DNA of 47,083 nucleotides from contig JAGLYK010000006.1 of assembly GCA_023132255.1 (NCBI GenBank), positions 1-47,083 on the forward strand, written 5' to 3'. Position 1 is the stretch's first letter. Each line of letters starts with the position of its first letter. Shown piece by piece: positions 4,070-34,530 of the stretch. The stretch is from Candidatus Pacearchaeota archaeon (GTDB lineage: Archaea > Nanobdellota > Nanobdellia > Pacearchaeales > GW2011-AR1). Below the pieces are notes generated by a model. That model did no database searches, was not told the origin of the DNA, and was given only the letters and a program-made list of their open reading frames with translations. Both the position numbers and the translations under genes were made by a program.

Positions 4070-4615
4070 TTAATTTTTATTAGAGAATTGTGATTTCACA
4101 ATTGCGTCTCTTAATTGTTTATATTTTGATTTTTGTAATTCTAATGCTGCGTTTTTTCCTTGATATATCTTTAGGGGATTATTGAAATTAATTTTTAAAC
4201 TTTTCTCATTTTCATCAAAAACCTCTAAATGTAAATGTGGAGAGGATGTGTATCCAATCATTCCAATTCCTTTTGCAATTGGCTGTCCTTTTTTAACTTT
4301 ATCATTTTTTTTAACAAGAGAAGAATTTGGTAATAGATGGAAATATTGTGAATATTCGTCATTATCATGTTTAATTGTAATATAATTTTGATATTTTAAT
4401 GCACCAAATTTTTCATTATTGCCCCCAACTTTAGAATTGTCTTTTACATTATGGACTGTTCCTTTTGCAATCGCCAAAATTTTAGTATTTGGTTTAATTA
4501 AAAAGTCAATTGCATGTTCATTGTTTAATTTTTTTGAATGAACTTCTGGATTTGAAACTGCAAGAGTCAGAGTATCTTTCTTAAAAGGCAGTGAGTAAAT
4601 ATTTTTTGTTTTCAT
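4070..4615 (-). CDS. M23-family metallopeptidase
   Basis: HAID (HxxxD-type), YFHL, V..GQ.I, G..GYTSSPHLHLEV motifs. Confidence 0.85.
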   Translation of the reverse strand: MKTKNIYSLPFKKDTLTLAVSNPEVHSKKLNNEHAIDFLIKPNTKILAIAKGTVHNVKDNSKVGGNNEKFGALKYQNYITIKHDNDEYSQYFHLLPNSSLVKKNDKVKKGQPIAKGIGMIGYTSSPHLHLEVFDENEKSLKINFNNPLKIYQGKNAALELQKSKYKQLRDAIVKSQFSNKN

Positions 4616-4953
4616 AGTCTATTAAAATTTAAACTTAACCTCCCCATTTCTTCAAAACATAATTTTACCATATCATCCATTTCTCTTTCCTGCTGATTCA
4701 TAAACAAAACAATTTCCTTTGGAATAGACACGGCATAACTGTTTCCAACCAACCTCATCTTAACATTAAATTCTTTATTTTTTAAATTTATAAATTTATT
4801 GTACTCTTGTTCATCAACAGGATGAATAATTTTCTCGTCGCACTTTGGGCAAATCACAGCCCTGAACAAAAATCCTCTCTTTGCTATTTTTGCTTTTTTC
4901 ATTTTTGCATTGCATTTTTTGCAGAGGATTGTGTTGTCAAATATGTCTGCCAT
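4612..4953 (-). CDS. Zn-ribbon + AbrB/SpoVT-like DNA-binding protein
   Basis: CKKC...CPKC followed by KMRLVGNSYAVSIPKEI. Confidence 0.8.
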   Translation of the reverse strand: MADIFDNTILCKKCNAKMKKAKIAKRGFLFRAVICPKCDEKIIHPVDEQEYNKFINLKNKEFNVKMRLVGNSYAVSIPKEIVLFMNQQEREMDDMVKLCFEEMGRLSLNFNRL

Positions 4954-5058
4954 TCAAAAGACACCTCGCGGTTTCTTTTGTAAACTTCCCTTCCTGTTCT
5001 GGTGGGCGATTTCTTTACATATTTCGATGGAAATCACATGATTTAATTTATTTATCAT
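4954..5058 (-). CDS. Putative 34-aa upstream ORF coupled to the AbrB-like gene
   Basis: MINKLNHVISIEICKEIAHQNRKGSLQKKPRGVF; its TGA directly abuts the next ATG; not in the ORF track. Confidence 0.35.
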   Translation of the reverse strand: MINKLNHVISIEICKEIAHQNRKGSLQKKPRGVF

Positions 5059-5877: not shown

Positions 5878-6186
5878 ATGCAATTCTGTCCAAAGTGCGG
5901 CACAATTCTCATGCAAAAGAGAAAGAATTTCGGATGCCCGAGATGTAATTATTCTACTAAAGAAAAAATAAAAATAATTTCTTCTGAAAAAATAGACGAG
6001 AGAAAAGAAGTTGCAGTGATTAGGGAAAAAGACATTGATGTCAGACCAATCACAACAGAAAAATGCGTGAAGTGCCCAAATGATAAGGCATATTTCTGGA
6101 CTGTTCAGGCACGGGCAGCAGATGAAGCAGAAACAAAATTCTTTCAGTGCACAAAATGCGGGCACACTATTAAGGACACTACTTAA
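5878..6186 (+). CDS. tfs: Transcription factor S
   Basis: FCPKCG N-terminal ribbon; QARAADEAETKFFQCTKCGH C-terminal ribbon with acidic DE hairpin. Confidence 0.9.
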   Translation: MQFCPKCGTILMQKRKNFGCPRCNYSTKEKIKIISSEKIDERKEVAVIREKDIDVRPITTEKCVKCPNDKAYFWTVQARAADEAETKFFQCTKCGHTIKDTT

Positions 6187-6509
6187 GAATCTTTTCCGAC
6201 TCTTTCTGAAAACCCACACTTACCGCATTTAACTAAAAATAAATTATCTTCGTCAGAATAAGAAATTCCTAAATCTAAAACTTGTGCTTTGTCATAACCA
6301 CACTTTGAACATTTATGTTCATAAGTCGCAAAAATATTTTCGTCTTTAGAAATACCTTTTCCAACTTTTTCTTTTTTAGGAATATTTTCACGCGAAGTTA
6401 AATCTGTGTTTGACTCAAAACCGCACTTAGAACATTTCAAGAAAACTTCCCCATTTTTTTTCTGGGGGCTTAGTAAAGTTTTACATTTCTGGCAAAACTT
6501 TAATGTCAT
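6183..6509 (-). CDS. TFS/RpoM-like paralogue (two Zn ribbons)
   Basis: FCQKC...CSKCG and CSKCG...SYSDED...CGKCG. Confidence 0.75.
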   Translation of the reverse strand: MTLKFCQKCKTLLSPQKKNGEVFLKCSKCGFESNTDLTSRENIPKKEKVGKGISKDENIFATYEHKCSKCGYDKAQVLDLGISYSDEDNLFLVKCGKCGFSERVGKDS

Positions 6510-6556: not shown

Positions 6557-6873
6557 TGGCCCTGGAGGGATTTCTTTATCTCCCGACTTCACACGGGTTA
6601 TTTATTTTAAATTTACTCCCTACCACGAAATCGCTCGACCCCCGAGATTAAATCTATTTGAATTTACCTGACTTGAAATCCAAAAGAATAAAAGGGATTT
6701 GCAATCCCTTATATGGCCCTGGAGGGATTTCTTGCTCCCACACGCACTTGTTTATAACATTCGCTTTGCTCACAAATACATGCAAGTGCGAATGCTCGAC
6801 CCCCGAGAACTAAATATTAAAATTTACCTGACTTGAAATCCAAGAATTAAATGCTATCTGGCGATAGCATAAA
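6557..6873 (-). repeat. Two tandem tRNA-derived repeat units (157 and 160 bp)
   Basis: TGGCCCTGGAGGGATTT at 6557, 6714 and 6874 (tRNA 3' end); shared blocks GCTCGACCCCCGAGA and AATTTACCTGACTTGAAATCCAA; variable hairpins between blocks. Confidence 0.92.
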
Positions 6874-6948
6874 TGGCCCTGGAGGGATTTGAACCCCCGA
6901 CACCTAGATTAAGAGTCTAGTGCTCTAACCAAGCTGAGCTACAGAGCC
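6874..6948 (-). tRNA. tRNA-Lys (CUU)
   Basis: Acceptor GGCTCTG/CAGGGCC-A; anticodon arm CTAGA-CT CTT AA-TCTAG; T arm GGGGG-TTCAAAT-CCCTC; no encoded CCA. Confidence 0.95.
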
Positions 6949-6983
6949 ATAAATACTTAATCAAAATTAACTTTAAATATTTT

Positions 6984-10353: not shown

Positions 10354-12756
10354 ATGAAACCAAAAAAAACAAAAGAAGAAAAAACAGCTGAGAGTTATTT
10401 TCCTGTTGATGAAACTGACTTGAAATACACAACTGAAAAACAGGAAAAAGAAGCTCCTGAAAAAGAAGAACTTCTCAAAGGTTCAATTGAAAAACAATAC
10501 AAAAAACCAGAAAGAGCTTCTTTGGAAACAGTGCACCACGGGCGTACCCCGAAAAATTTTCGTGGAAAATTTTTACAAGGGGCAAAAAAATCAAAAAGAC
10601 CAAGGAAAAAAACTACTGCAAAAAAATTCATTCCGCAAAAAATAAAATTAAAAGAAAAAGGTTATGAATTAATTATCACAGAAAAACCTCAGGCTGCCTC
10701 AAAAATTGCCCAGGCACTTGGAAAAGCAACTCAGAGAGTTAATAACAAAATTTCTTATTATGATGTGAATCGGGATGGGACGCAGATAATTGTTGCGTGC
10801 GCTGTTGGGCATTTGCTGACTTTAAAACAAAATGTTCCTGGTTCTTCTGTCCCGATTTTTGACATTTCATGGACTCCAAATTATCTGGCAAACAAAAAAG
10901 CAGGTTTTACAAAAAGATATTTTGACACTTTGCTGAAACTCGCGAAAAACGCGGGGAGCCTGACAGTCGCAACAGATTATGATGTTGAAGGAGAGGTTAT
11001 AGGAATGAATGTTGTGAAATATATCTGCGGTCAAAAAGACGCGAATCGGATGAAGTTCTCAACTTTGACAGACAAGGAATTAAATGATGCTTATGAAAAA
11101 AAATTTTCTCATATTGATTGGGGGCAGGCAATTGCAGGTGAAACAAGGCATTATCTTGATTGGTTTTATGGAATAAATTTGTCACGGGCTTTAATGAATG
11201 CGATAAAAACAACAGGCAAGTTTCGGATAATGTCAATTGGCAGGGTTCAGGGTCCTGCTTTGAATTTGATTGTTCAAAGAGAGAGGAAGATTCAGGCTTT
11301 CAAATCAGAACTTTATTGGCAGGTTTTTATTAAGGTGAGAAATTCTCATAAATTAGAGCTTAAACATAATAAAGATATATTCAACAAAAATGATTTATCA
11401 AAATTTGAAAATCTAGTCGGAAAAACAGTTGAAGCAAAAACAAAAAAAACAGAACAAATTGTTTCTCCAAATCCTCCATTCAATCTGACAATTCTTCAAA
11501 CAGAAGCTTACAAGTTTTATGGTTTAACTCCGTCAAAAACTCTTCAAATTGCCCAATCACTTTATTTAGCAGGACTAATTTCTTACCCAAGAACTTCTTC
11601 TCAAAAACTTCCTGTTTCAATTGGCTACAAAGAAATTTTAAAAAAACTTGCAAAAGAATACAATGTTGAAAAACTGATTACAAAAGATAAACCAGTTGAA
11701 GGAAAAAAATCAGACCCTGCTCACCCCTCAATTTACCCAACAGGTAACAAACAAATTTTGTCTGGAGATGAAGAAAAAATTTACAATTTAATTGTCAAGA
11801 GATTTTTGTCCTTATTCTGCGATTCTGCAATAATTGACAACAAAACAGTTTCAGTAAATGTGGATAATTTATTATTCATCGCGCGAGGGTCGTCAATTAG
11901 AAAAAAAGCCTGGATGGAAATTTATCCGTCTAAATCTAAACATGTTGAGATTCCTGATTTAGAAGGTGAAGTAAAAATTGTGGATATGAGAACAGAAGAA
12001 AAAGAGACTCAGCCTCCAAGAAGATATTCTCCTGCTTCAATCCTCTCTGAACTTGAAAAAAGAAACCTCGGAACAAAAGCAACTCGTTCTGCAATTCTTG
12101 AAACACTCTACGACAGAAGTTACATAAAAGAAAAATCAATTGAAGCAACACCTTTGGGAATGTCTTTAATTTCAACTCTTGAAAAACATTCCCCAATAAT
12201 AATTGATGAAAAATTAACCCGAAGTTTTGAAGATCAAATGCAATCAATTATAGAAGCAAAGAAAGATTTTTTACAAAGACAAAATTCTGCGAATTTTAAC
12301 TTGTTCTTAAAAGAATTAAGAACAAAAGAAGAAAAAGTTCTTGATAATGCAAAAAAAACTTTGATTGATATTTCAAAAGATTTCAGCAAAAATGAAAAAG
12401 AAATTGGGAGAGAACTTCTTATTGCAAACTTGCAATTAAGAGAACAGCAAAAAATAGAGAACACATTATGTGTTTGTCCTGTCTGCAAGAAAGGAAACCT
12501 TGCGATAACTTATTCAAGAAAAACAAAAAGGCATTTTGTTGCCTGCGACGCTTACCCAAATTGCAAAACAACTTTTAGTCTTCCTCCGGGCACAATTAAA
12601 AAAACAGAAAAAACCTGTGAAAAATGCGGGTTTCCTTTAATGATGAGTTTAAAGAGGGGAAGAAAGCCGTGGATTTTTTGTTTTAACAGAGAGTGTGAAA
12701 GTAACAAAAAGAGAATTGAAGAGTATAGGAAGAAGCAGGAAAGTGTAGCACAATAA
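10354..12756 (+). CDS. topA: DNA topoisomerase I (type IA)
   Basis: TEKP, GHL, ATDYDVEGE, SIGRVQ, ISYPRT (catalytic Tyr), GTKATR, C-terminal Zn ribbons. Confidence 0.96.
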   Translation: MKPKKTKEEKTAESYFPVDETDLKYTTEKQEKEAPEKEELLKGSIEKQYKKPERASLETVHHGRTPKNFRGKFLQGAKKSKRPRKKTTAKKFIPQKIKLKEKGYELIITEKPQAASKIAQALGKATQRVNNKISYYDVNRDGTQIIVACAVGHLLTLKQNVPGSSVPIFDISWTPNYLANKKAGFTKRYFDTLLKLAKNAGSLTVATDYDVEGEVIGMNVVKYICGQKDANRMKFSTLTDKELNDAYEKKFSHIDWGQAIAGETRHYLDWFYGINLSRALMNAIKTTGKFRIMSIGRVQGPALNLIVQRERKIQAFKSELYWQVFIKVRNSHKLELKHNKDIFNKNDLSKFENLVGKTVEAKTKKTEQIVSPNPPFNLTILQTEAYKFYGLTPSKTLQIAQSLYLAGLISYPRTSSQKLPVSIGYKEILKKLAKEYNVEKLITKDKPVEGKKSDPAHPSIYPTGNKQILSGDEEKIYNLIVKRFLSLFCDSAIIDNKTVSVNVDNLLFIARGSSIRKKAWMEIYPSKSKHVEIPDLEGEVKIVDMRTEEKETQPPRRYSPASILSELEKRNLGTKATRSAILETLYDRSYIKEKSIEATPLGMSLISTLEKHSPIIIDEKLTRSFEDQMQSIIEAKKDFLQRQNSANFNLFLKELRTKEEKVLDNAKKTLIDISKDFSKNEKEIGRELLIANLQLREQQKIENTLCVCPVCKKGNLAITYSRKTKRHFVACDAYPNCKTTFSLPPGTIKKTEKTCEKCGFPLMMSLKRGRKPWIFCFNRECESNKKRIEEYRKKQESVAQ
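10533..10583 (+). mobile_element. Intragenic two-hairpin element, copy A (51 nt, in topA)
   Basis: GCACC-ACG-GGCGTA-CCCC-G-AAAAATTTTC-GTG-GAAAATTTTT-ACAA-GGGGC; shares termini with three other copies; mobility is inferred. Confidence 0.75.
12281..12325. repeat. Second double-hairpin segment in topA
   Basis: AAAATTC-TGC-GAATTTT (12281-12297) and perfect TTGTTCTTAA-AAGAA-TTAAGAACAA (12301-12325). Confidence 0.5.
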
Positions 12757-14206: not shown

Positions 14207-15097
14207 TCATTTTCCAAAAATAATTTTATCAATATCTTCCTGAGAAAGATTCTCTTTATCTAAATCAATTTTCTTGCCCTTAGTAAACATTTCCTCGGGA
14301 AATGTTTCAGGGTACGCCTGAGGCCTCTGTCCTCGGAGGTCATCCCTGTGGGATGGTGCACCAACTTTCCCTTCAGGTTCACTAAAAATCTTTTCTTCCT
14401 TCTTTTTTTTCATCTCCTGCAAATCAGCAATTGTCAAGGTTTTTGTGGTTGTATCATCAAATTTAATTTTATCTTCCTCAACATTTTGTAAAAACTCTTC
14501 TTTAACTTGATTTACTTCTTCATCAAAAGACACAACCCTTGCTGATTCATTTTTAATTCTAATCCCCAAATAATTCTCAATTTTATTTACTAACACAAAA
14601 TCATTTTTAGGGAGAACACCTTTCTCGGCCATGTTGATTGCTTCTTCAGATTCTTCAATCGTTTCTGCAAATTGCTTTTGAGTCAGCTTCTTGGCCCTCC
14701 TCGCTCTCATAATAATCCAGTGAAAATTATCAACCATTCCAAAAGATTTTTCTCCAATGGAGCCCAAAACATTCTTGCTGAAATTTTTGCCCTCACCAGA
14801 GGGTACTTTGTTAGAGGTTCTCGCACCCTTTGGGTATACACCAAGGCCTTCATCTTCAGAGGTCATCCTTGTGGGAGGCGGTGTTTCTTTCTCACTTTTT
14901 ATTTCAATTCCGGATAAACGAGAGAGCCGTTCATAAACCGTGGGTCTCTTTTCAGTTTTCTCTTTCAAATATTTTATAATAGGAATATTCTCTTCAAAAG
15001 AACATTTCCGGCAAATTTTAACAATTCCTTTTTCAGAAACAGCGTCAAAAAGCAAAGCTCTGTCTCCTGAAACCCCGCACTTAAAACATTTATTCAT
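14207..15097 (-). CDS. MBF1-like Zn-ribbon + XRE HTH protein
   Basis: CFKCG...CRKC; IMRARRAKKLTQKQFAE...AEKG; contains two in-frame element copies. Confidence 0.8.
   Translation of the reverse strand: MNKCFKCGVSGDRALLFDAVSEKGIVKICRKCSFEENIPIIKYLKEKTEKRPTVYERLSRLSGIEIKSEKETPPPTRMTSEDEGLGVYPKGARTSNKVPSGEGKNFSKNVLGSIGEKSFGMVDNFHWIIMRARRAKKLTQKQFAETIEESEEAINMAEKGVLPKNDFVLVNKIENYLGIRIKNESARVVSFDEEVNQVKEEFLQNVEEDKIKFDDTTTKTLTIADLQEMKKKKEEKIFSEPEGKVGAPSHRDDLRGQRPQAYPETFPEEMFTKGKKIDLDKENLSQEDIDKIIFGK
14276..14359 (-). mobile_element. Intragenic two-hairpin element, copy B (84 nt)
   Basis: Sense strand GCACC-[36 nt]-GGCGTA-CCCT-G-AAACATTTCC-CGA-GGAAATGTTT-ACTA-AGGGC. Confidence 0.75.
14789..14884 (-). 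mobile_element. Intragenic element, copy C (96 nt, composite)
   Basis: Sense strand ACACC-[loop similar to copy B]-GGTGTA-TACCC-AAA-GGGTG...GTACCCTC-TGGT-GAGGGC. Confidence 0.7.
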
Positions 15098-23943: not shown

Positions 23944-26313
23944 TCAAACCAACCCATGAGCAACAATCAAATCCTTTTCAAAATCTTTTAAACTCTTTGG
24001 AATCTTAATTCCAGATATTTCATTTCTTAAACTAATGCTTTTGTCTTTTTTCTTTTTCCAAACCTTGCTGTTGAAGTTTACAAGTTCGTCAATTAATTTT
24101 AAATTGCTTTTGGGTTTTTTTGCTTTTGGAAATTCTTGTTTAAGCAAATTAATTTTTTTCTCTTTGGCAATTGTTGTTGTAATTTGAGGGATAATTGGAT
24201 ATGCTAATGTTAAAAATCTTTCAAGCAAGAAATGAAGAGTGTATTTAGCAGAGTCGCTTTCCTTTTTTGTGAATTTTTTATTTTGGTTATAAGCTCTGCT
24301 CTTGACAAGTTCAATATAATGCGAGGCAAAAATTTCCCATAAAAAATTTCTGAGTTTCAAGGCAGGATGATGAAAATTATATTTTGCATATTTTTTGTCT
24401 GAAAATTCTGTAAGCTCCTCAATATAATTTATAAATAATTCATCAAATTTTTCAGTCTTTGGCTTTTGCTTTGGCTTGTCAAATAACATTACAAATTTTG
24501 AGACATTTAATATTTTATTAAGTGTCTTTTTTTCAGAATCAATTCTTTGTGGTGAAACACTTAAATCTTGCTTGGACAAATCTCCTTCTGTAGCCGCCCA
24601 GAACCTTATGGCTTCTGCACCAGATTGCTCAACGATTTTTTGAGGGTTAATAATATTCCCAAGAGATTTAGACATTTTTCTGGCTTTTTCATCTAATAAA
24701 TGCTGGTGGACCCAGACATCTTTAAAACAAGGTTGTCCTGTTTCCAAATATCCTCTTAAAAGAGTATAATAAAGCCAGGTTCTAACAATTTCTTTGCCCT
24801 GTGGTCTTAAAGTTGCAGGATAAGCTTTTTTGAAAAATTCATTATCCTGTTTATATTTTAAAATATATAATTCAGAAATTGATGAGTCCATCCATGTGTC
24901 AAAAATTCTTTCTTCTCCAGTCCATTTGTGTTTGAAATCTTTGACTTTTCCAATTATTTTTCCATTGTCCAGAACATCTGCATTTTCCGGAACTTTTTCT
25001 TTCCATGGTTTATAGTATTTTCCTTGCTGTGGAACAGCAACCAAACCATTTTCAGAATACCATAAAGGGATTTCAGTAGCATAAAATCTTCTTCTTGAAA
25101 TAGGCCAGTCAATTGAAATTGAATCAATCCAGTCTTCAAGAATTTTTCTGGAGCTTTCCGGATAAAAATTAATTTTTTTAGAAATCTTTCTGATTTCTTC
25201 TTTGAATTCTAATTGTTTTAAATAAAACTCAGGCATTTCAATGAATTCAATTTCTGCTCCAGACCTTTCAGAAATAGGGGTCCTGTGAGTTATTTTTTCC
25301 TGTTTAAATAATAAATTTTTTTCTTTCAGTTTTTCAATAATTTTTTTTCTTGCTTCCTTGATTTTTAATCCTTGCAAAAACCCGGCATTTTTATTCATGG
25401 TTCCATCTTGGTTAATTGCAATAACAGGTTTTAATTTTTGTTCTCTAAAAAATTGAATGTCAGATAAATCTCCTGCAGAACACATCATAACAATTCCTGT
25501 GGCTTTTTCAGGGTCTGCTAAAGGATGCGCCTTGATTGGAATTTCTTTTTTAAATAAAGGAGAGATGGCGGTTTTTCCTTTAAGATGTTTATGTTTTTCA
25601 TCTTTAGGATTAAAAATTATCATTCCGCAAGTGCAGATTAATTCCGGTCTTGTAGTGCCGATAATTATTTCTTTTCCAGTTTCTTTGATTTTCCATTTAA
25701 CATAAACAAATTCCGAGATTAGGTCTTTGTATTCTATTTCAGAATCTGCAATTGTTGTCTGGAGTTTAGAGTCCCAGTTATTGATTCTAACATCTTCGTA
25801 AATTAATCCTTTTTTGTATAATTCAATAAAAGTTGATTGTGTCAAGGTTCTGTATTCTGGAGAATCTGTTTTGTAAACAGCTCCAATGTGGCTTCCTTCT
25901 TTGTAAGAAGTAAATGAAATCCCCAACTTTGCAAAAGAGTCCTGTGTTTCTTTAGACCCGTCGCTGATTAGTTTCTTGCAATATTCAATGAATTTTTCTC
26001 TTCCAATTTTAAATGGAGAAACTTTGAATTTTTTTTCAGCGCCCATTTCAATAGGCAAACCATTTCTGTCCAGCCCTAAAGGGAACAAAACTTCAAATCC
26101 CTTCATTCTTTTGTATCGTGCAAACATGTCCATGAAACAATAAGTAATTGCCTGGGCAATATGGATTGGCGCATTAACATAAGGTGGGGGAGTGTCGATT
26201 GAATAAATTTCCTTTTTTGTTTTTGGATTAAAATTAAACATCTCAGACTTTTTCCATTTTTCAGTAATCTTTTTTTCTATTTCAGTATTCCAGTTTTTAG
26301 GTAACCCTTTCAT
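23944..26313 (-). CDS. valS: Valyl-tRNA synthetase
   Basis: IDTPPP, HIAQ (HIGH variant), TTRPE, DWPISR, DTWMDSS, KMSKS. Confidence 0.93.
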   Translation of the reverse strand: MKGLPKNWNTEIEKKITEKWKKSEMFNFNPKTKKEIYSIDTPPPYVNAPIHIAQAITYCFMDMFARYKRMKGFEVLFPLGLDRNGLPIEMGAEKKFKVSPFKIGREKFIEYCKKLISDGSKETQDSFAKLGISFTSYKEGSHIGAVYKTDSPEYRTLTQSTFIELYKKGLIYEDVRINNWDSKLQTTIADSEIEYKDLISEFVYVKWKIKETGKEIIIGTTRPELICTCGMIIFNPKDEKHKHLKGKTAISPLFKKEIPIKAHPLADPEKATGIVMMCSAGDLSDIQFFREQKLKPVIAINQDGTMNKNAGFLQGLKIKEARKKIIEKLKEKNLLFKQEKITHRTPISERSGAEIEFIEMPEFYLKQLEFKEEIRKISKKINFYPESSRKILEDWIDSISIDWPISRRRFYATEIPLWYSENGLVAVPQQGKYYKPWKEKVPENADVLDNGKIIGKVKDFKHKWTGEERIFDTWMDSSISELYILKYKQDNEFFKKAYPATLRPQGKEIVRTWLYYTLLRGYLETGQPCFKDVWVHQHLLDEKARKMSKSLGNIINPQKIVEQSGAEAIRFWAATEGDLSKQDLSVSPQRIDSEKKTLNKILNVSKFVMLFDKPKQKPKTEKFDELFINYIEELTEFSDKKYAKYNFHHPALKLRNFLWEIFASHYIELVKSRAYNQNKKFTKKESDSAKYTLHFLLERFLTLAYPIIPQITTTIAKEKKINLLKQEFPKAKKPKSNLKLIDELVNFNSKVWKKKKDKSISLRNEISGIKIPKSLKDFEKDLIVAHGLV

Positions 26314-26364
26314 ATATTTTTACCATCAAGAAACTTTTAAAAACTATCTATCTATAAAATAATC

Positions 26365-26526
26365 ATGGCTCAAGATACACAAGTCCAGATGCCCGGCGGA
26401 TTCGGCGGGTTAATGAGGTTCAGCGAAGAATACTCAAGCAGGTTCAGTTTAAAACCAACGCATGTAATTGTATTTATAATTTTGATAATTGTTTTTAGAT
26501 TTTCCTTGGGGGTGTTTTTTGGTTAA
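26365..26526 (+). CDS. secG: Preprotein translocase subunit Sec61beta (53 aa, missing from ORF track)
   Basis: MPGGFGGLMRFSEE...LKPTHV followed by one TM helix. Confidence 0.88.
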   Translation: MAQDTQVQMPGGFGGLMRFSEEYSSRFSLKPTHVIVFIILIIVFRFSLGVFFG

Positions 26527-26527
26527 A

Positions 26528-26857
26528 ATGTTTCCAGGAATGAACCCAAAAAAAATGCAGGCAGTTATGAAGCAAATGGGAATCTCGCAGGACGAGATTG
26601 ACGCTTCAAGAGTTATAATTGAAAAAACAGACAGCACCAGAATAATTATTGAACCTGTTTCTGTGACAAAAATAAAAATGCAGGGACAGGAAACTTTTCA
26701 GATTGCAGGGGAAATCAGGGAAGAAACTTCTGCTCCTGAAATTTCTGAGGAAGATATAAAAACAGTTATGGAAAAAACCAATAAATCTGAAGAAGAAGTG
26801 AGAGAGGTTTTGGAAAGAACAGGGGATTTGGCAGAGGCGATTTTGGAGTTGAGTTGA
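26528..26857 (+). CDS. nac: Nascent polypeptide-associated complex protein
   Basis: MNPKKMQAVMKQMGI, FQI.G, C-terminal GDLAEAILEL; start reassigned to ATG 26528. Confidence 0.92.
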   Translation: MFPGMNPKKMQAVMKQMGISQDEIDASRVIIEKTDSTRIIIEPVSVTKIKMQGQETFQIAGEIREETSAPEISEEDIKTVMEKTNKSEEEVREVLERTGDLAEAILELS

Positions 26858-26902
26858 AAGTTGTTTGTTTACTTTTTTTCTAAAAAAGAAGATGCTTTGT
26901 GA

Positions 26903-28180
26903 TTAAGATTCTCTTACTACAAATTCATTCATTGAACAAAAAGTAGTTCCAAAATCGTCTTTTGAAGTTGCGGAATAAAATACATTCCCTCCAGAATCTC
27001 TTGAAGTTGCATCAACATAATAATATTTTTTCCCGTTGTGAGTTACATAACGCTCTGAACCGCCTAAAGTAATTCCATCAACATAAAGAATCCCGACGAT
27101 TGCGTGATAAGAAGTATAATCATGACAAGGTCCAACTAAATAGTGGGCATCGTAGCCAATTTCTCTTAATAACGCTGTCGCCATAACTGCGCTATCTGCA
27201 CAAAGCCCTTCTTTTTTGACAATTGTTTCCATTGGGAAATTTGCCCAATCTGGTAAAGGTTTATCGAAATTTAGTTTTGTGTAATCATAATTAAAAGAAC
27301 GGGAAAATGCAATAGTCATCATTAATTTATCTGCATCATTATATCCTTCTGCATTTGCTAATTGATTCATTATTTGAGCAACTTCTTCTAATTGCGGGTC
27401 TTTTCGATTAATTAAATTTTCTTTGGGCATATTTTCATAAGATGAAATAACATCTTCACTAATTTTTATTTCAAAATTAAGGTTTTGTGGGAACGGACAA
27501 AATCCCCAAATACAATTTTTTCCATAGTACCAATCATAATTAATGTTGTCTGGCAAATATTCAAAAAGAGGGTGATTGTCATAACCATCTAAAACTGTAT
27601 CTCCATCTGTGTCTGGATTATATCTGTCTGTGCCTTTTTGTATTTCCTCATAATCAAAGAAAGCATCGTTGTCGCTGTCGTCTGGTTCGCAAGAATGCTC
27701 TTGGCTATTACAAGTATAATATTGGGGGCAAGATTTATCTTGATATTTTATATCATTTATACAACAATCAAAAGGACATTCAGGTTTAACACATTTGTTT
27801 AAATTTGCATCACAAACTAAACCATTTGAACAACCAGCATCTATACAACAAGTTTCGCTCGTTTCTCCTTCGTCTTTGTATCCATCTCCACAAACAATTG
27901 TATAACATCCTAAATTATCTGATTTTGTTCTATCAGGAAAACAAATTTGGTCAGATTTACAAACACATTTTGAAGGAGTATTTTGGCAATTTTCTCCTTT
28001 ATTATATTTACAAGAAGCATCCTCTTCAAATAAACTCCAAGAAGATTTTTTTGATTCTTCTCCACTTGTTGTAGAAGAAGAATTGCTTGGTTGATAAATA
28101 AAAAATAAAACAATAAGAAAAACAATAATAACAACACTTCCTGCAATATACCAAATATTATTCTTTTTCTTTTTAGCCAT
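26903..28180 (-). CDS. Membrane-anchored Cys-rich transglutaminase-like protein
   Basis: N-terminal TM, Cys-rich repeats, DSDND/DTDGD Ca-binding-like motifs, GLCAD...HA...VDAT triad. Confidence 0.75.
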   Translation of the reverse strand: MAKKKKNNIWYIAGSVVIIVFLIVLFFIYQPSNSSSTTSGEESKKSSWSLFEEDASCKYNKGENCQNTPSKCVCKSDQICFPDRTKSDNLGCYTIVCGDGYKDEGETSETCCIDAGCSNGLVCDANLNKCVKPECPFDCCINDIKYQDKSCPQYYTCNSQEHSCEPDDSDNDAFFDYEEIQKGTDRYNPDTDGDTVLDGYDNHPLFEYLPDNINYDWYYGKNCIWGFCPFPQNLNFEIKISEDVISSYENMPKENLINRKDPQLEEVAQIMNQLANAEGYNDADKLMMTIAFSRSFNYDYTKLNFDKPLPDWANFPMETIVKKEGLCADSAVMATALLREIGYDAHYLVGPCHDYTSYHAIVGILYVDGITLGGSERYVTHNGKKYYYVDATSRDSGGNVFYSATSKDDFGTTFCSMNEFVVRES

Positions 28181-28315
28181 CTTAAATTAATAGAGAACTA
28201 AAAGTTTAAAAGTTTATCTTTTTCTTTTCTTGGGTTTTCTAAAAATTGTATCTAACTAATTACCAAACTTGATGAGGGCAGTAATAAAATTAAAAGAACT
28301 TAAACCCAAAAATTA

Positions 28316-28891
28316 CTATCTCCAATTCCTTTTAAGACCTTGTCTTTCTTTTATTAAATCTAATAATTTAGAAGTAAACACAAAATCCAAATTATCTAAA
28401 TTTTTCGGATAAAGTGAAATAAACTCAACATCATTTGTTTTATATAATTTCTTTTTATAATCGTAACTTTTGTTTTTATACTCTTTATTGTCTATCATGC
28501 CCCAATATTCAACAAATACTTCAAATTCTGGCAAGAAAAAATCTGGTTCAACCTTGACTGAAAGAAAAGGGATTGTAATACCAAAAAAAGTTTTGTTTAA
28601 TTTAATAACAGGGTGATGACGATAAATTATGTTCTTTCTTTTAAAATAGTTCGCGATAATTTCTTCTTTTTGTGAATCATAATGATTTTTCTTATATGGT
28701 TTGATTATTTCATATTTTCTTTTTGTTTCTCCTATAAATACTAAAATTGAAAATATTATAAATAAGTAACCAAACCCTTTAATTGCTTCTATCAAATCTT
28801 TTTGTTTTGAAAAAACCATTAACAAACCTATAAGAAAAAAGAATATTGCTCCTTGCTGTCTTGTTGAAAGTATTTTAAGGAATTTTCCCAT
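28316..28891 (-). CDS. Two-TM protein with PD-(D/E)xK-like nuclease domain
   Basis: S..E..IA.Y, PDFFL...VEYWG, Y..K. Confidence 0.65.
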   Translation of the reverse strand: MGKFLKILSTRQQGAIFFFLIGLLMVFSKQKDLIEAIKGFGYLFIIFSILVFIGETKRKYEIIKPYKKNHYDSQKEEIIANYFKRKNIIYRHHPVIKLNKTFFGITIPFLSVKVEPDFFLPEFEVFVEYWGMIDNKEYKNKSYDYKKKLYKTNDVEFISLYPKNLDNLDFVFTSKLLDLIKERQGLKRNWR

Positions 28892-29020
28892 GTTATTTTG
28901 TTATATTTTTGATTATATAAATTTATTGAAATGAATTTCAATTTGTATTTACTTTAACCTCAAAATAATTTCTTCTTCCACCACCAACAAATATAATAAT
29001 TCTAAACACTTCTAAATAAT

Positions 29021-29203
29021 ATGGTAATTAAAAGAAAAACCTTAAATGCCTTTCATGCGACTTCCATGAGTGTTATAAAAAGTCGCACACCTGAACAAAA
29101 AGAGAAGGTTAAGCCGAGCGATTTCGTGGTAGGGACAAATGAAAATAAATCCCCCGTGCGAAGTCGGGAGTTAAGGAAACCGCAGGTGTCCTCGCATGGA
29201 TAA
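29021..29203 (+). CDS. Small upstream ORF carrying a copy of the tRNA-repeat hairpin cargo
   Basis: ATG ~22 nt after AATATATAA; overlaps next ATG; codons PSDFVV...RELR coincide with the repeat at 29115-29179. Confidence 0.45.
   Translation: MVIKRKTLNAFHATSMSVIKSRTPEQKEKVKPSDFVVGTNENKSPVRSRELRKPQVSSHG
29115..29179 (+). repeat. Dispersed copy of the hairpin cargo of the tRNA-linked unit (reverse complement of 6571-6637)
   Basis: First 21 nt identical (CGAGCGATTTCGTGGTAGGGA), then AAAATAAAT..CCCGTG.GAAGTCGGGAG.TAA.GAAA. Confidence 0.88.
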
Positions 29204-29654
29204 ATTCCTTGAAAATCTTGAAGAAGCACACAAGATAATCTCCATTGCTGACCACATGCTTTATGTAACCTTTCCTTTGATTCAAGACAAAAAACTTTTG
29301 TTAAAAATTCTACTAGACACAAAAATTGCAATTTCCAAGTGCATTAGTTCTGTCCTCCAATACGAATATCTTTACAAAAGAATAAAACTTTGCAATGACC
29401 CAAAAACAAATTTCAGGACATTTACAGAAAAATGTGCCAAGAGATATAATATTACAGAACAAGAAATTAGATTAATCGCGGAATTATTTGATGTTGTAGA
29501 AGAGCATAAAAAAAGTTCAATGGAATTTATGAAAAATGAAAAAATTGTAATTCTTTCCCAAAATTTACAGCAAAAAATAGTAACAATTGAAAAAGTCAAG
29601 GAATTTTTAATATTAGCAAAAAATATTTTGGAAAAAATTAAAAAAACAGTTTAA
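29196..29654 (+). CDS. Conserved hypothetical helical protein (ADHxLYV motif)
   Basis: IADHMLYVT; motif shared with the next gene. Confidence 0.75.
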   Translation: MDKFLENLEEAHKIISIADHMLYVTFPLIQDKKLLLKILLDTKIAISKCISSVLQYEYLYKRIKLCNDPKTNFRTFTEKCAKRYNITEQEIRLIAELFDVVEEHKKSSMEFMKNEKIVILSQNLQQKIVTIEKVKEFLILAKNILEKIKKTV

Positions 29655-29670
29655 AGAGAACTTTTTCCTG

Positions 29671-29781
29671 TAACTTTGCTCTTTTGTTTTTGTGAAGTTG
29701 CCTAGTAAACCTTTTGTGTTGTTGTTTATCCTGAATTCTTAGGAAATCAACTTTGCAAAAATAGAATAGCAAAGTTGCCTA
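29671..29781 (+). repeat. Pair of inverted 30-nt palindromes (REP/BIME-like or long RNA hairpin)
   Basis: 29671-29700 matches the reverse complement of 29748-29777 at 24/30; both are followed by CCTA. Confidence 0.7.
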
Positions 29782-29841
29782 AAGATAAATATAAAAAGCC
29801 TCTGTTCCTAATGGGGTATAGTTCTAATTCATTAGATTAAC

Positions 29842-30282
29842 ATGGAAGAAATAATTCAGGAAAAAATAAGTGCAGACCATCTCCTTTATGTTAGCTTAAA
29901 ATATACAAAAACCTGTGATGTGATACTAAACCTCATTCGAAGGTGGAGGAGAATGATTGAAGTGAGTATCAACGAAATATTAAAACACGCCGAGAAAAAA
30001 AAGAAAATATCTTCAGTTCCTTTGAATCCCATAGGAAAAATAGAAGAGGTAAAAAAATTATTCAAGAAGAATAAAGATTTCTTGCAAGTCATAGAAATGT
30101 ATGAGATGTTCAGAAAAATTGAAGAATTAAAAAAAGAACGAACAGGCGAGTTCAGGAAAAACGTTAACTTGAAAATATTTTACAGAGGGAAAGAAATAAA
30201 TGTAAATTTGGAACAACTAAAAATATATGCAGAAATGTTGGAAAAGTTTATAAGTACAACAAAGCAATTTCTTCTATTATAA
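29842..30282 (+). CDS. Conserved hypothetical helical protein (ADHxLYV motif)
   Basis: SADHLLYVSLKYTKTCDV...EFRK. Confidence 0.75.
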   Translation: MEEIIQEKISADHLLYVSLKYTKTCDVILNLIRRWRRMIEVSINEILKHAEKKKKISSVPLNPIGKIEEVKKLFKKNKDFLQVIEMYEMFRKIEELKKERTGEFRKNVNLKIFYRGKEINVNLEQLKIYAEMLEKFISTTKQFLLL

Positions 30283-30299
30283 AGATTATATTCTTTAAA

Positions 30300-31076
30300 A
30301 TGTCAAAAATAATTGTCATTACATCTGGTAAAGGGGGTGTTGGAAAAACTACCTCTGCAATAAATCTAGGAGCAGCCATAAATTATTTTGGTAAAGACTC
30401 ATTAATTATCGACGGAAATCTCTCCACACCAAACATTGGAATCCATTTAAATTCCCCAGAAGTCCCGATAAATCTAAACCATGTGTTGTTAAATAAAGCA
30501 GAACCTTTCGAGGCTGTTTATGAACATGAATCAGGAATAAAAATCATGCCCTCATCTTTATCAATAAAAGAACTGAAAAAAATACAGCCAAAAAAAATAA
30601 AAGATTTTAAAAAAGATTTTAAGGAACTTTCAGAATATATTATTATTGACAGTGCTGCAGGACTTGGCGATGAAGCAATATCTGCAATTGAAATAGCTGA
30701 TGAATTAATAGTAGTTACAAATCCTGAAATGCCTGCAATCACTGACGCATTAAAAACAATCAAGATTGCAGAGCAGTTAAAAAAACCAGTCAAAGGAGTG
30801 ATAATAACAAGAGTCAAAAAAAATAAAATAGAAATGCCCCCTGAAACAGTAAAAGAAATGCTGGAAACCCCTGTTCTTGGAATGGTTCCGGAAGACATAG
30901 ATATTCAAAAATCCTTAAGTCTGCGGGACACTGTTGTCCATACTTTTCCAAAAAGCAAGTCAGCAAGAGCATACAAGGAAATTGCAGCAAGAATTTTAGA
31001 TGTAGAATATGATTCTAAAAAAGACAGGGAAAAATTAATTAAAAGAGTTCTTCAAAAGCTGGGATTAAGTAGTTAA
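30300..31076 (+). CDS. minD: MinD/ParA-family ATPase
   Basis: SGKGGVGKTT, IDS.AG, TNPE..AITDA, amphipathic C-terminal tail. Confidence 0.9.
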   Translation: MSKIIVITSGKGGVGKTTSAINLGAAINYFGKDSLIIDGNLSTPNIGIHLNSPEVPINLNHVLLNKAEPFEAVYEHESGIKIMPSSLSIKELKKIQPKKIKDFKKDFKELSEYIIIDSAAGLGDEAISAIEIADELIVVTNPEMPAITDALKTIKIAEQLKKPVKGVIITRVKKNKIEMPPETVKEMLETPVLGMVPEDIDIQKSLSLRDTVVHTFPKSKSARAYKEIAARILDVEYDSKKDREKLIKRVLQKLGLSS

Positions 31077-31412
31077 TCACTTGATTTTACTACCAACTTC
31101 AACATCTTTATCTGGTTTAATTAATTTGACTTTTGATTCATCGTTGCTAACAGAAGCTAAAACCATTCCCTGACTTTCAATTCCCCGCAATTTCCGAGGA
31201 GCAAGATTTACAAACAAAATTATTTTTTTACCAACTAATTCTTCTTTTGAATAATAAGCTTTTAAACCAGCACAAACAGTTCTTTTTTCAGAACCAATAT
31301 CCACAAAAAGTTTGAAAAGTTTGTCAGCACCTTTAATGTTTTCAACTTCCAAAATTTTTCCAACTCTTAAGTCAAGTTTTTCCCAATCTTCAAAATTAAT
31401 TATGTTTTCCAT
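31077..31412 (-). CDS. Stand-alone tRNA-binding OB protein (MetRS C-domain/Trbp111-like)
   Basis: LDLRVGKI, ADKL, NLAPRKLRGIESQGM. Confidence 0.9.
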   Translation of the reverse strand: MENIINFEDWEKLDLRVGKILEVENIKGADKLFKLFVDIGSEKRTVCAGLKAYYSKEELVGKKIILFVNLAPRKLRGIESQGMVLASVSNDESKVKLIKPDKDVEVGSKIK

Positions 31413-31619
31413 TTAAACAAACACCCCATAATATTTAAGAGATATTAATGGCTCTAATCTCGGAACATGATCTCTTTGAATTTTTTGAAAACCATTATCT
31501 TGTGAATAAAGTCTTTTCAAATACCTTATTTCTATTCCCTCTTTATTAACTTCTTTTTCTAATTTTTTTAAGGATGAATTAAAATTCAGAGAATTTTCGC
31601 TTTCTAATTCTTTTTTCAT
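31413..31619 (-). CDS. Small hypothetical protein (68 aa)
   Basis: ATG at 31619 just after the metG stop; its stop abuts the OB-protein ATG. Confidence 0.45.
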   Translation of the reverse strand: MKKELESENSLNFNSSLKKLEKEVNKEGIEIRYLKRLYSQDNGFQKIQRDHVPRLEPLISLKYYGVFV

Positions 31620-31620
31620 T

Positions 31621-33078
31621 TCATATTTTCTTAAAAAGAATTTCACTCTTTTTAATCTTTGTTGCACTAAACTGCTTTTTAATTTTTTCGGCACTTTCCG
31701 GAATAAATGGCCAAAGCAAATCAGCAATTTTTAAGATTGACTCTTTTAATTCATAAAGAACTTTTTTATCTCTAGTTTCCCACGGCTTTTTATTCTGAAC
31801 ATATTCATTACAAATATCAATAAAACTAAAAATTTCATTTAATACTTTATCAAATTCATAATTCTCAAAAAGTTTTTCAATTTTTGCCTCATTTAATTTT
31901 TTTAATAATTTATTTTTGCCCCCGAATACTCCATCCTGCATATCAAGGGGTACACCCTTGGGTGCAGATTTACTAATTCCAAATTTTTCAATAAGTCCGG
32001 AAACCCTTGAAACCAAGTTCCCTAATTTATTCGCGAGTTCATTATTATGCCTATCAATCAAAGCTTGCTCTGAAAAATCTCCGTCATCCCCAAAAGGCGT
32101 TTCTCTTAAAAGAAAATACCTGATTGAATCAACATTTCCGGTAATAGATATTAATTCATTCACATTGATTACTTTCCCTCGCGACTTTGAAATTTTCTTT
32201 TTATTAAATGTCCAGTATCCGTGAACAAAAATAGTTTTAGGGAGTTTGATTCCAGCAGACATTAACATAGTTGGCCAGATAACAACATGAAACCACATGA
32301 TATCTTTAGCAACAATATGCAAATCAGCGGGCCAAAATTTTGAAAATTTTTTATCATCTTTTAAATAACCAACCCCAGTAAGATAATTCAAAAGTGCATC
32401 AAACCAAACATAAGAAATATGTTTGTTATCAAAAGGCAATTTAATCCCCCAATTAAAACTTGTTCTTGAAATACTTAAATCCTGCAAATCCTCTAAACGA
32501 TTAATAATTTCTTTAACCCGAAACTTAGGCAATATAAAGTTAGGATTATCTTTATACAATTTTAAAAGCTTCTTTTTATATTTTGATAATTTAAAAAAAT
32601 AACTTTTTTCTTTTAATTTTTCTGCTTTTGTTTTATGTATTGGGCAACATCCATCAACTAAATCTCTTTCAGTATAATATGCCTCGCAACCCGTGCAATA
32701 AAGTCCCTCATATTCTCCCAAATAAATATCTCCTTTATCAAAAACTTTCTGCAGAATTTTTAAAACAACTTTTTCATGATCTTTTTCTGTTGTTCGAATA
32801 AACCGGTCATAATCAATATTTAGTTTTTTCCACGCATTCTTGAACTCAGGAACTAATTCATCAACAAACTCCTTTGGATTTTTTGTTTTTTTCTTAGCAG
32901 CAGTTTCAATTTTTTTCCCATGCTCGTCAGTTCCTGTCAAATAAAAAACATCTTCTCCTTTGAGTTTATGCCCCCTGGCAATTACATCGCCAACTATGGT
33001 TGTGTATGCGTGGCCCACATGCGGGATATCATTTGGATAATATATCGGGGTTGTAACATAAAATTTTTTCCTTGCCAT
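31621..33078 (-). CDS. metG: Methionyl-tRNA synthetase (single-knuckle, bacterial-like core)
   Basis: TTPIYY..PHVGH, GTDEHG, C..CE...CPIH, YVWFDAL, KISKS. Confidence 0.95.
   Translation of the reverse strand: MARKKFYVTTPIYYPNDIPHVGHAYTTIVGDVIARGHKLKGEDVFYLTGTDEHGKKIETAAKKKTKNPKEFVDELVPEFKNAWKKLNIDYDRFIRTTEKDHEKVVLKILQKVFDKGDIYLGEYEGLYCTGCEAYYTERDLVDGCCPIHKTKAEKLKEKSYFFKLSKYKKKLLKLYKDNPNFILPKFRVKEIINRLEDLQDLSISRTSFNWGIKLPFDNKHISYVWFDALLNYLTGVGYLKDDKKFSKFWPADLHIVAKDIMWFHVVIWPTMLMSAGIKLPKTIFVHGYWTFNKKKISKSRGKVINVNELISITGNVDSIRYFLLRETPFGDDGDFSEQALIDRHNNELANKLGNLVSRVSGLIEKFGISKSAPKGVPLDMQDGVFGGKNKLLKKLNEAKIEKLFENYEFDKVLNEIFSFIDICNEYVQNKKPWETRDKKVLYELKESILKIADLLWPFIPESAEKIKKQFSATKIKKSEILFKKI
31918..31965 (-). 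mobile_element. Intragenic two-hairpin element, copy D (48 nt, in metG)
   Basis: Sense strand GCACC-CAAG-GGTGTA-CCCC-TTGATAT...GTATTC-GGGGGC. Confidence 0.75.
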
Positions 33079-33153
33079 AAATAAAATACAATTACAAGAT
33101 ATAAAAAACTAACTAAAAACATTTATTAACAATAATTACTGATTAAATTAAAG

Positions 33154-34530
33154 ATGGTGGGTAAAAAACAAGAGGAAAAATTAAAGAAAAAAGCAAGAAG
33201 GCACAGCATTGCAGAAGGGATTTTCGCTTCAGCTAAAAATTCATTTGGGCATTATTATGTTTCTCCATTTGCAATAGCAATTAATTCAAGTTCATCGTTT
33301 GTTGCCATGATAAGTGCTGTTAGCGGATTGCTTGGTCCTCTAAGCCAAATGTTTGGTTCAAGACTCCCTGAAAAATTTTCCAGGAAAAAAATACTTCTTA
33401 AAACAATTTTCATTGAATCATTAATGTGGCTGCCGTTTGTTGCAATCGCGGTTTTATTTTACAAAGGAATTTTATTAGAATCACTTCCAATTTTAGTTTT
33501 ATTTTCTTTTGCATTGTATATAATTGCAGGAAATCTCGGCTACCCTGCATGGTTCTCATGGATGGGCGACATTGTTGAAAAAAAACACCGAGGAAGATGG
33601 TTCTCAAAAAGAAATTTATTAACAGGTTTTGTTTCAGTAGTTTTAGCAATCTCTGCAGCACTTTTCTTGGATTATTTTGAAAAAAATAATTGGGTAATGT
33701 TTGGGTTTATGATTTTATTTTCATTGGCACTTTTAAGCAGACTAATCTCCTGGAAAATTTTTCACAAACAATACGAACCAAAAATGAAATTAAAAAAAGG
33801 CTACTACTTCTCACTCTGGGATTTTTTGATTAACTCTAATAAAAACAACTTTGGAAAACTTGCATTATTTAGATTTTTCTTCACTTTTACAGTTGCAATT
33901 TCAACTCCTCTTTTAGTAGTTTATTTATTAAGACATTTGAATTTTTCATACACTTTATATATGATAATAATTTTTTCCGGCACAACACTTTCATTAATTA
34001 CTTTAGAGCTGTGGGGGAAATTTGCAGACAGATATGGCAATTACAAAGCCCTCTGCATCGCAGCATCAATGACCCCTTTTGTCCCGATATTATGGATTTT
34101 AAATTCAAATCCCCTTTATCTGATTTTCATACCCTCTGCAATAAACGGAATTGCATGGGCGGGAATTTACCTCGCTGAAAAAAATTTTATATATGATAAT
34201 GTAAATAATGAAAAAAGAGGTCTTGCGATTTCTTATTACAATATTTTCTGGGGTGTTGGGACTTTTTTAGGGGCATTACTCGGAGCATTTTTAATAAAAA
34301 TTTTAAACACTGATTTCATACAGCCAATAACCTTAATTTTCATCATCGGTGCAGTCGCAAGAGGAATTTCTTTACTTTGGTGGCTTCCAAAAATGAGAGA
34401 AACAAGAAAAACAAAAAAATTCACAAATTCAAAAGCATTCAACGAAATTATCCTAAAAGAATCTGTTCCGACAATTAATAAAGAAGTCCATGAAATAATG
34501 CATATAAGAAAATATTTAGATTTCATATAA
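33154..34530 (+). CDS. MFS transporter
   Basis: About 12 hydrophobic helices; WGKFADRYG motif. Confidence 0.88.
   Translation: MVGKKQEEKLKKKARRHSIAEGIFASAKNSFGHYYVSPFAIAINSSSSFVAMISAVSGLLGPLSQMFGSRLPEKFSRKKILLKTIFIESLMWLPFVAIAVLFYKGILLESLPILVLFSFALYIIAGNLGYPAWFSWMGDIVEKKHRGRWFSKRNLLTGFVSVVLAISAALFLDYFEKNNWVMFGFMILFSLALLSRLISWKIFHKQYEPKMKLKKGYYFSLWDFLINSNKNNFGKLALFRFFFTFTVAISTPLLVVYLLRHLNFSYTLYMIIIFSGTTLSLITLELWGKFADRYGNYKALCIAASMTPFVPILWILNSNPLYLIFIPSAINGIAWAGIYLAEKNFIYDNVNNEKRGLAISYYNIFWGVGTFLGALLGAFLIKILNTDFIQPITLIFIIGAVARGISLLWWLPKMRETRKTKKFTNSKAFNEIILKESVPTINKEVHEIMHIRKYLDFI

Follow-up and report, generated by a model that had tools for sequence, protein, structure and literature searches.

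Small non-autonomous repeats with inverted-repeat arms, such as BOX, Correia/NEMIS, ERIC, REP/REPIN with the RAYT transposases, and the miniature inverted-repeat transposable elements (MITEs), are modular and nest within one another. Rickettsia palindromic elements are short hairpin repeats that occupy intergenic DNA, RNA genes and housekeeping genes, in the last case with the reading frame kept open and with a preference for the sense strand. Integration of the SSV and pNOB8 type leaves fragments of tRNA genes in archaeal genomes. As far as the summary in PMC4090602 goes, the Thermoproteales harbor families of "intron transposition", in which introns move between tRNA genes (Fujishima et al. 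2010), and the account given in PMC3293823 places a tRNA-Thr fragment of Caldiarchaeum next to an element bearing a recombinase. The route by which archaeal introns arrive is stated as open in the relevant lines of a 2026 preprint (10.64898/2026.10.13.758758) and as unknown in those of the review PMC4090602. Here we analyze a short hairpin unit, termed module B, in the genome of a Candidatus Pacearchaeota archaeon (GCA_023132255.1, here G000), and in particular its copy at positions 29115-29172 of contig C36 (JAGLYK010000006.1), all 47,083 nucleotides (nt) of which constitute "the window". The assembly comprises 39 contigs (625 kb, 78% complete, approximately 32% G+C), its tRNAs and ribosomal-protein genes have an archaeal look as read from the sequence, and comparison of the genome with itself yields 315 repeats, many of which measure 50-180 nt and have up to 14 partners.

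Our preferred reading, with a probability of roughly 60%, is that the segment 29115-29170 represents one copy of a portable hairpin module of about 56-60 nt, which has been copied into many unrelated places within one family of DPANN archaea. An earlier note on this DNA had reported that 29115-29179 matches the reverse complement of 6571-6637. This is borne out by a BLAST comparison of the 625-kb genome with itself: 29115-29179 (plus strand) and 6637-6571 (minus strand) are 85.1% identical across 67 columns that include a single gap (E = 2e-12), and the opening 21 nt are identical between the copies. This 21-mer, with up to 3 mismatches allowed, occurs in six places of the genome, and the reversed control pattern in none. 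The stem CGATTTC/GAAGTCG, the CGAG...GGAG frame and the two occurrences of GTTAAG (29108-29113 and 29170-29175) are present as had been described, and a tRNA-derived flank is indeed absent from 29115. With the covariance model R1, built from nine copies of the module (alignment A3), the copy at 29115..29172 (plus strand) scores 79.7 bits (E = 6.8e-20); the model match spans 29115-29170 and the trailing TT is frequent in copies. The second copy in the window, at 6580..6637 (minus strand), lies in the T-loop of a partial copy of a tRNA 3' end and scores 80.2 bits (E = 4.6e-20). The match nearest to copy 29115 is C34:20120-20163 (97.8% over 45 columns), and that nearest to copy 6637 is C7:39910-39951 (92.9% over 42 columns). 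The two window copies are not mutual nearest relatives and therefore no direction of transfer can be read from them, so that the roles of donor, reservoir or recipient proposed earlier for the tRNA-linked array find no support. Independence of the module from the tRNA repeat, which had also been proposed, holds: R1 detects 12 copies in the genome of origin (E<1e-4), which together occupy at least five kinds of setting, and the sister species G002 carries the tRNA-Lys array with another cargo only. The segment is not a fixed part of the locus in relatives, five of which lack the whole cassette, nor is it without other dispersed copies. Taken together, the observation made in the earlier note is confirmed and its interpretation is partly supported.

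At 29115 the module consists of the CGAG frame, an 8-base-pair (bp) stem, a UGGUA/GUG internal loop, a 3-bp stem, an A-rich loop and the GGGAG frame, and it is predicted to fold as an independent hairpin. Its ends are sharp (CGAG at the 5' side and GGGAG at the 3' side, often followed by TT), while the flanks are unrelated among copies. Long forms contain an additional 33-nt insert of two hairpins (one in C34, two in C7), and one copy (C3:26667-26797) is 131 nt long. In the 39 aligned copies, whose alignment (A4) was fitted to the model and hence favors pairing, 97.5% of cells pair, compared with 26-50% for slid partners; the 8-bp arms, which pair in the same 97.5% of cells, thus qualify as terminal inverted repeats. 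Changes on both sides were found in 8 of the 12 pairs, and none of 500 shuffles reached the observed values. Many pairs are U-G, which on the other strand become A-C mismatches, therefore the hairpin is good on this strand only; such strand-specific, G-U-tolerant pairing points to RNA and not to a DNA cruciform. By hand count, 10 of the 12 strong copies of G000 are oriented as the neighboring tRNA or the downstream gene. According to maps of their flanks and of tRNA genes all 12 lie outside long protein-coding frames, and no intragenic module B was found among them.

The taxonomic distribution of module B is narrow and patchy. Among 61 genomes of the family f1, one per genus, R1 detects it in 15 (E<=0.01), with 1-16 copies each. 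In the sample of 151 genomes covering the order (E<=1e-6), the 14 positive genomes all belong to f1 (G000 and 13 of the other 105), and none of the 45 genomes from the eight remaining families has a match. A scan of the window against Rfam brought only two tRNAs above threshold, a search of six loci at E<=1 gave nothing relevant, and a full-text literature search covering main articles, with supplements outside its scope, returned no account of such modules in DPANN archaea. These results show that module B is a discrete, structured and strand-specific unit that has been copied into many settings, a true intron site included. One family of repeats is seen in five states within one archaeal family, i.e. 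as a tRNA intron, as an insert in a T-loop, in a leader or in an open reading frame (ORF), and free-standing.

The tRNA-linked state is represented in the window by two units that adjoin the intact tRNA-Lys(CUU) gene (6873..6949, minus strand, detected by ARAGORN and by Rfam RF00005 with 70.1 bits). Unit 1 (6557..6713, minus strand) is composed of a hairpin, an AT-rich box, a copy of the 5' side of the T-stem, module B and the last ~18 nt of tRNA-Lys; unit 2 (6714..6872, minus strand) has the same scaffold with a different hairpin, cargo 2 (about 6735-6798), in a CGAG...GGGAG frame. Such units lie behind or before tRNA genes, with module B inside the would-be T-loop of the partial tRNA copy, and relatives show this arrangement at their tRNA-Ser, Ile, Leu and Gln genes as well, often directly after GGTTCGA. 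Module B is located within 400 nt of a tRNA gene in 13/38 and 7/22 matches with loci. The unit with cargo 2 is found also in G002, and behind tRNA-Thr(UGU) both on contig C2 of G000 and in G017. At the locus shared by tRNA-Lys and the TFS gene, G000 has two units and G002 has one, with cargo 2, while G007 and G010 have none; unit 1 is thus missing from all three relatives. The tRNA-Lys block 6557-6949 of G000 is inverted relative to the TFS gene (6186-6509) when compared with G002, G007 and G010, and the G002 stub resembles a hybrid of tRNA-Thr and tRNA-Lys 3' ends.

Partial copies of tRNA ends accompany 6 of the 29 tRNA genes of G000 (exact 11-mer screen). Partial 3' or 5' ends are the classic signature of attachment sites, and with the hybrid Thr/Lys look of the G002 stub and the reported position of the Caldiarchaeum tRNA-Thr fragment beside a recombinase-bearing element (in the portion of PMC3293823 that deals with it) they would fit a scenario in which the tRNA-linked units are decayed scars of integrative plasmids or viruses, the partial copies correspond to attL and attR, and copy 29115 is a product of secondary recombination. 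We regard this scenario as improbable, since the units are only ~157-160 nt long and free of genes, the genome yields an integrase fragment of just 50 residues, and the module interrupts the partial tRNA copy in the T-loop instead of lying beside it; moreover, the module occurs also at sites devoid of any tRNA sequence (29115, C32, C7 and ORFs of relatives), and the same cargo sits on stubs of Lys, Gln, Ser, Glu, Leu and Ile tRNAs. No integrase-bearing element was found between an intact tRNA gene and its partial copy. Another reading of the units, as split or permuted tRNAs, was not retained, as the cargo forms a covarying fold of its own, an intact tRNA-Lys(UUU) gene is present, and the units have no 5' acceptor strand.

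Some tRNA-associated sequences around module B show further complexity. The tRNA-Glu(CUC) gene in the region C37:17135-17560 is interrupted by a 147-nt intron. A module B copy precedes this gene on the opposite strand and has a 33-nt direct repeat of the 5' end of the tRNA on either side of it, and the downstream side of the gene holds a further hairpin in a CGAG frame, which terminates in a copied tRNA 3' end. A third module, which starts with GCGAGTTTATTGGGAAGCG in its copy at C28:1810-1915, has similar, non-identical copies at C37:3794-3945 and C21:3330-3420; it was seen fused to module B in a tRNA-Gln unit, inside a copy of the leader repeat described below as module A, and as the cargo of a tRNA-Ser unit. 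In G007 the tRNA-Lys(CUU) gene upstream of TFS (locus L064) has an insert of ~45 nt in the anticodon region, and the corresponding genes of G000, G002 and G010 have none.

The intron state was found in relatives by ARAGORN with its intron option. In G041 the tRNA-Gln(CUG) gene has at the canonical site a 60-nt intron that consists of one base, module B and two bases, and in G071 the 58-nt intron of tRNA-Gln(UUG) contains a hairpin in the same CGAG...GGAG-type frame. The junctions of the G041 intron allow a hand-drawn bulge-helix-bulge (BHB) motif of canonical form, in which tRNA positions 32-35 pair with the GGAG of the module; RNAfold predicts this helix of 4 bp. The genome G000 encodes one EndA (C3:36820-37074, a frame of 173 residues) and RtcB. 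Its two window copies are found away from the canonical intron site, 29115 in a leader and 6580-6637 in a partial tRNA copy, and for the flanks of 29115 and 6637 two hand-tried tRNA-Gln registers gave no canonical motif, RNAfold pairing these flanks otherwise.

The state within genes was likewise found in relatives: module B copies with an open frame and in sense orientation are present in genes for Bud32 (G041), an MnmA-like protein (G149) and an aIF5B-like protein (G145), these names, like those of S17e, L10e and the RFC small subunit below, being assigned from our reading of the sequences. All three copies are on the sense strand and they are read in two different frames. Bud32 of G000 has no insert, which appears as a 24-residue gap in the alignment with G041. 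The link between the tRNA array and intragenic inserts that had been proposed thus stands as far as these relatives are concerned, but it does not extend to the inserts of the window itself. These are GC-rich hairpin repeats (10527-10590, 14274-14323, 14784-14843 and 31909-31971) with cores of the GGGTACGCC and GGTGTACC type, located inside long ORFs and with partners on several contigs. Those at 10527-10590, 14274-14323 and 31909-31971 were considered as relatives of module B and rejected, as they belong to a different repeat family.

The leader state is that of copy 29115, which had been described as lying in a small ORF of 60 codons (29021..29203, plus strand). The frame is indeed open, but we judge it to be spurious: it results from reading through two nested repeats, of which module B is the inner one. 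The outer one, module A, is a repeat of ~90 nt composed of hairpin 1, a box CACCTGAAC...GGAAG and hairpin 2, which holds a Shine-Dalgarno-like GAGGTG; at its 3' end there follows, without a gap, an ATG or base 1 of a tRNA gene, and AT-rich boxes precede its copies. An nhmmer profile made of four copies gives 29 matches in G000 at E<0.05, of which 21 are at E<=1e-4, and these copies precede genes read as S17e, L10e and the RFC small subunit as well as genes for tRNA-Val and tRNA-Thr. The 5' part of the copy in question, with hairpin 1 and the CACCTGAAC...GAAGG box, is at 29054..29114 (plus strand; nhmmer match 29054-29109, E = 4.6e-12, paralogs on C13, C17, C3 and C26). Its 3' part, at 29173..29199 (plus strand), includes the start codon (29196) as well as hairpin 2 with its Shine-Dalgarno-like GCAGGTG, and matches the 3' ends of uninterrupted copies (GAGGTG...ATGG). 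At 29115 module B accordingly sits between the box of module A and hairpin 2, upstream of the Shine-Dalgarno-like site and of the start at 29196. A paralogous "empty site" is provided within the window by the uninterrupted module A at 4954..5040 (minus strand; nhmmer E = 7.5e-13), which abuts the ATG at 4953 of the ORF 4612-4953. Elsewhere module B was found inserted also in the hairpin-1 loop (C17:5054, C34:20121) and in the hairpin-2 loop (G002, locus L016), which together with the linker at 29115 makes three insertion points, and at C32, C7:30422 and C7:39865 it lies directly upstream of start codons where module A is absent. Module A also forms tandems, with three copies at C34:36444-36701 and two to three at C3:1547-1905, the last of which abuts tRNA-Val(GAC).

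The gene behind the composite leader (29196..29654, plus strand, 152 amino acids) is conserved and has no Pfam family. Its relatives are present in 19 of 21 genomes, G000 counted; the alignment begins no later than residue 5 in 16 of these 19, and at residue 1 in the strongest matches. In favor of 29021-29203 being a genuine small protein gene with an in-frame insert one may note that the frame stays open for 60 codons in G000 and is also open in G002, from which it differs by three substitutions only. This explanation is nonetheless hardly tenable, given that the ORF has no Pfam match, overlaps the conserved start at 29196, has in the C32 copy a stop in the equivalent frame (as judged by eye), is absent upstream of the orthologs in G001, G003, G008, G009 and G010, and is built of two repeats that elsewhere abut tRNA genes or occupy other frames. 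Copy 29115 is consequently no intragenic insert, as had been supposed, because the small ORF is spurious. Gene callers will make false small ORFs from such nested repeats, as happened here.

We also considered a 5S rRNA origin for 29054-29199, either as a gene that is degenerate or permuted or as a repeat derived from 5S. By eye, the region ~29085-29140 resembles the loop C region and the helix IV/V arm, and RF00001 finds no 5S gene in G000. However, RF00001 has no match at E<=10 anywhere in this genome (13 candidates scored) and none at E<=1 at the locus itself, while a single 5S match was obtained in 29 of 31 relatives (G000 counted), in 27 cases with a score above the family cut-off, and the 5S genes of relatives do not align with 29054-29199 and lie in a different neighborhood that shows no synteny. 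The 5S gene of G000 is probably unassembled because the genome is only 78% complete. The 5S-derived reading was dropped as effectively refuted and we give it next to no credence.

Presence and absence of the cassette were compared at the orthologous locus. An indel of ~62-63 nt in the small ORF had been suggested as something to look for among relatives; the sister species G002 (89% protein identity) shares the same A+B composite leader, and the congeners G001 and G003 (81%) as well as three other genera (G008, G009, G010) lack the whole stretch and have a short AT-rich spacer only. We also inspected four metagenome runs (X1-X4), which are DNA contigs from a single study, with a likeness threshold of 85%; no RNA run was found for 26000-34000. 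In one contig form of run X2 just a single base separates 29114 from 29173; the spacer of this form is 21 nt by hand count, as in the uninterrupted C13 paralog. It follows from this form, which lacks 29115-29172, that the second TTAAG is made of the terminal TT of the insert and of host bases and is not a duplicated target. GTTAAG, which had been suspected to be a target-site duplication, is thus probably none, and the flanks of the other copies agree. Many copies in relatives (G041:C10:1931, G041:C12:13886, G149:C2:13235, G149:C49:13268, G188:C23:39788 and G008:C26:7564) are flanked by G-rich near-repeats, GGGTGGG upstream and GGGYGGG-like downstream, which could be a duplicated preferred target or part of a longer subfamily. 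In run X2, at a distance of 450 nt from module B, the 141-nt stretch 29637-29777 is replaced by 13 other letters; it overlaps the dispersed repeat 29674-29797, which has partners on C7 and C34.

Between G000 and G002 the cassette differs at 3 of 146 positions, with 0 differences in the 80 positions of module B and the 3' part of module A, whereas in the adjacent gene 31 of 152 third codon positions differ (Fisher p = 2e-7 for the cassette contrast). This contrast speaks for constraint or for homogenization among copies. It also agrees with a different explanation, in which module B is a recruited functional RNA domain, e.g. a protein-binding site such as an L7Ae-type kink-turn, kept for its use and not as selfish DNA, with a role in processing, stability or translation control in leaders, tRNA-linked small RNAs and introns. 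All 9 copies of A3 and most of the stronger matches from relatives retain the UGGUA/GUG internal loop, and the stems covary; a start codon follows the copies at C32, C7:30422, C7:39865 and 29115 at a distance of 5-40 nt; some copies are preceded, at 20-25 nt, by AT-rich TATA-like boxes; and the cargo-2 unit behind tRNA-Thr(UGU) is conserved in two genera. A kink-turn consists of a canonical stem, a 3-nt bulge and tandem sheared G-A/A-G pairs, and is bound by L7Ae. The CGAG/GGAG frame sets G-A and A-G opposite each other in all copies, but when drawn by hand the flanking stem and 3-nt bulge can be built only for the tRNA-Gln intron of G071, and not for 29115 or 6637. The patchy occurrence (15/61 genomes of the family, 1-16 copies) and the absence of the whole cassette before the same gene in two congeners fit a retained function badly, and the translated copies in the Bud32, MnmA-like and aIF5B-like genes are poorly explained by a role of the RNA. 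We therefore consider a functional domain unlikely as the explanation of module B, though less so than the attachment-site scars discussed above.

For the portable hairpin module, the following course of events can be suggested. The selected form would be RNA or a single strand, oriented as the host transcript, while portability would reside at the DNA level, and the fate of each copy would be set by its landing site. A copy in the anticodon loop of tRNA-Gln, where the exon flanks may build a BHB, would amount to a normal intron that can be spliced out; one that landed in the T-loop of a partially copied tRNA 3' end would form the cargo of a tRNA-linked unit (6580-6637 being an example); a copy within a protein gene would survive only if the frame stays open; and a copy in a 5' leader would just add a hairpin. 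At 29115 the module would stay in the 5' untranslated region, as no BHB could be built from its flanks. We infer that module B spreads at the DNA level and is spliced only where the landing site supplies the BHB; candidate routes of spread are recombination at the conserved frame or a trans-acting enzyme.

Several points weigh against the portable-module reading. The pairing statistics come from the model-fitted alignment A4, and the settings in relatives were read among the 38 + 22 matches with loci. RNAfold reproduces only the 4-bp central helix in the G041 pre-tRNA-Gln and places the G071 intron in a register different from that of the BHB drawn by hand; transcription, splicing behavior and the way of spread are deduced from sequence. 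No transposase, integrase or reverse transcriptase attributable to module B was found in G000: within its 78% complete assembly RVT_1 has no match and the integrase is represented by the 50-residue fragment only, and the flanking hairpins of the single Y1 (IS200/IS605-type) transposase gene, which has its own upstream hairpins (C18:24425-24769), show neither likeness to module B nor a sequence link to module A. No consistent target-site duplication was seen, the flanks of the G000 copies sharing no direct repeat. The joint in X2 was recorded once, at 85% likeness and in one study, and is suggestive of an empty site at 29115, a related strain or species being another possible source. Finally, function or gene conversion, and not selfish spread, could account for the high conservation of the cassette in G000 and G002.

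A stronger version of the proposal holds that module B is a currently active non-autonomous mobile element, that its RNA form is an intron processed by EndA and RtcB which seeds tRNA introns in anticodon loops, and that the partial copies of tRNA ends are footprints of integration into T-loops, each insertion copying the local tRNA end. We put this forward only tentatively and rather doubt it. If true, archaea would possess a mobile element of a new kind, and one way in which BHB introns arrive would have become visible. The occurrence of module B in five states bears in any case on the question of how archaeal introns reach new sites, and, since relatives and a natural population differ in its presence, this question can be addressed by comparing filled and empty sites and by enzyme assays.

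Comparison with the known systems reveals that the window copy lacks at least one defining feature of each of them, be it a BHB intron, a Rickettsia palindromic element, a MITE or an attachment-site duplication. Like the tRNA fragments left by integrative elements, the tRNA-linked units have direct repeats of a tRNA end that bracket foreign sequence beside an intact tRNA gene, but they are ~160 nt long, gene-free and arranged in tandem, and the partial tRNA copy is itself interrupted in the T-loop. With MITEs and other modular repeats module B shares the inverted-repeat arms, the nesting (B inside A, and the 33-nt insert inside long forms of B) and the location in leaders beside start codons, but it is devoid of a target-site duplication and of a partner transposase with matching ends. 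It resembles the Rickettsia palindromic elements in its in-frame, sense-strand inserts in genes of relatives, and differs from them in its archaeal host, in being also a splicable tRNA intron, in its tie to partial tRNA copies, and in having no intragenic copy in G000. The introns of Thermoproteales are described, in the summary cited above, as passing from tRNA to tRNA, whereas module B is found also in leaders and in open reading frames. From archaeal BHB tRNA introns in general it is distinguished by the fact that most copies are outside tRNA genes, in leaders, stubs of tRNA ends and ORFs, where no BHB could be built from the flanks. At the same time, similar intron sequences at different sites of one genome are a feature common to both, EndA and RtcB are encoded in G000, one copy of module B constitutes the canonical intron of tRNA-Gln(CUG) in G041, and its frame-mate occupies tRNA-Gln(UUG) in G071.

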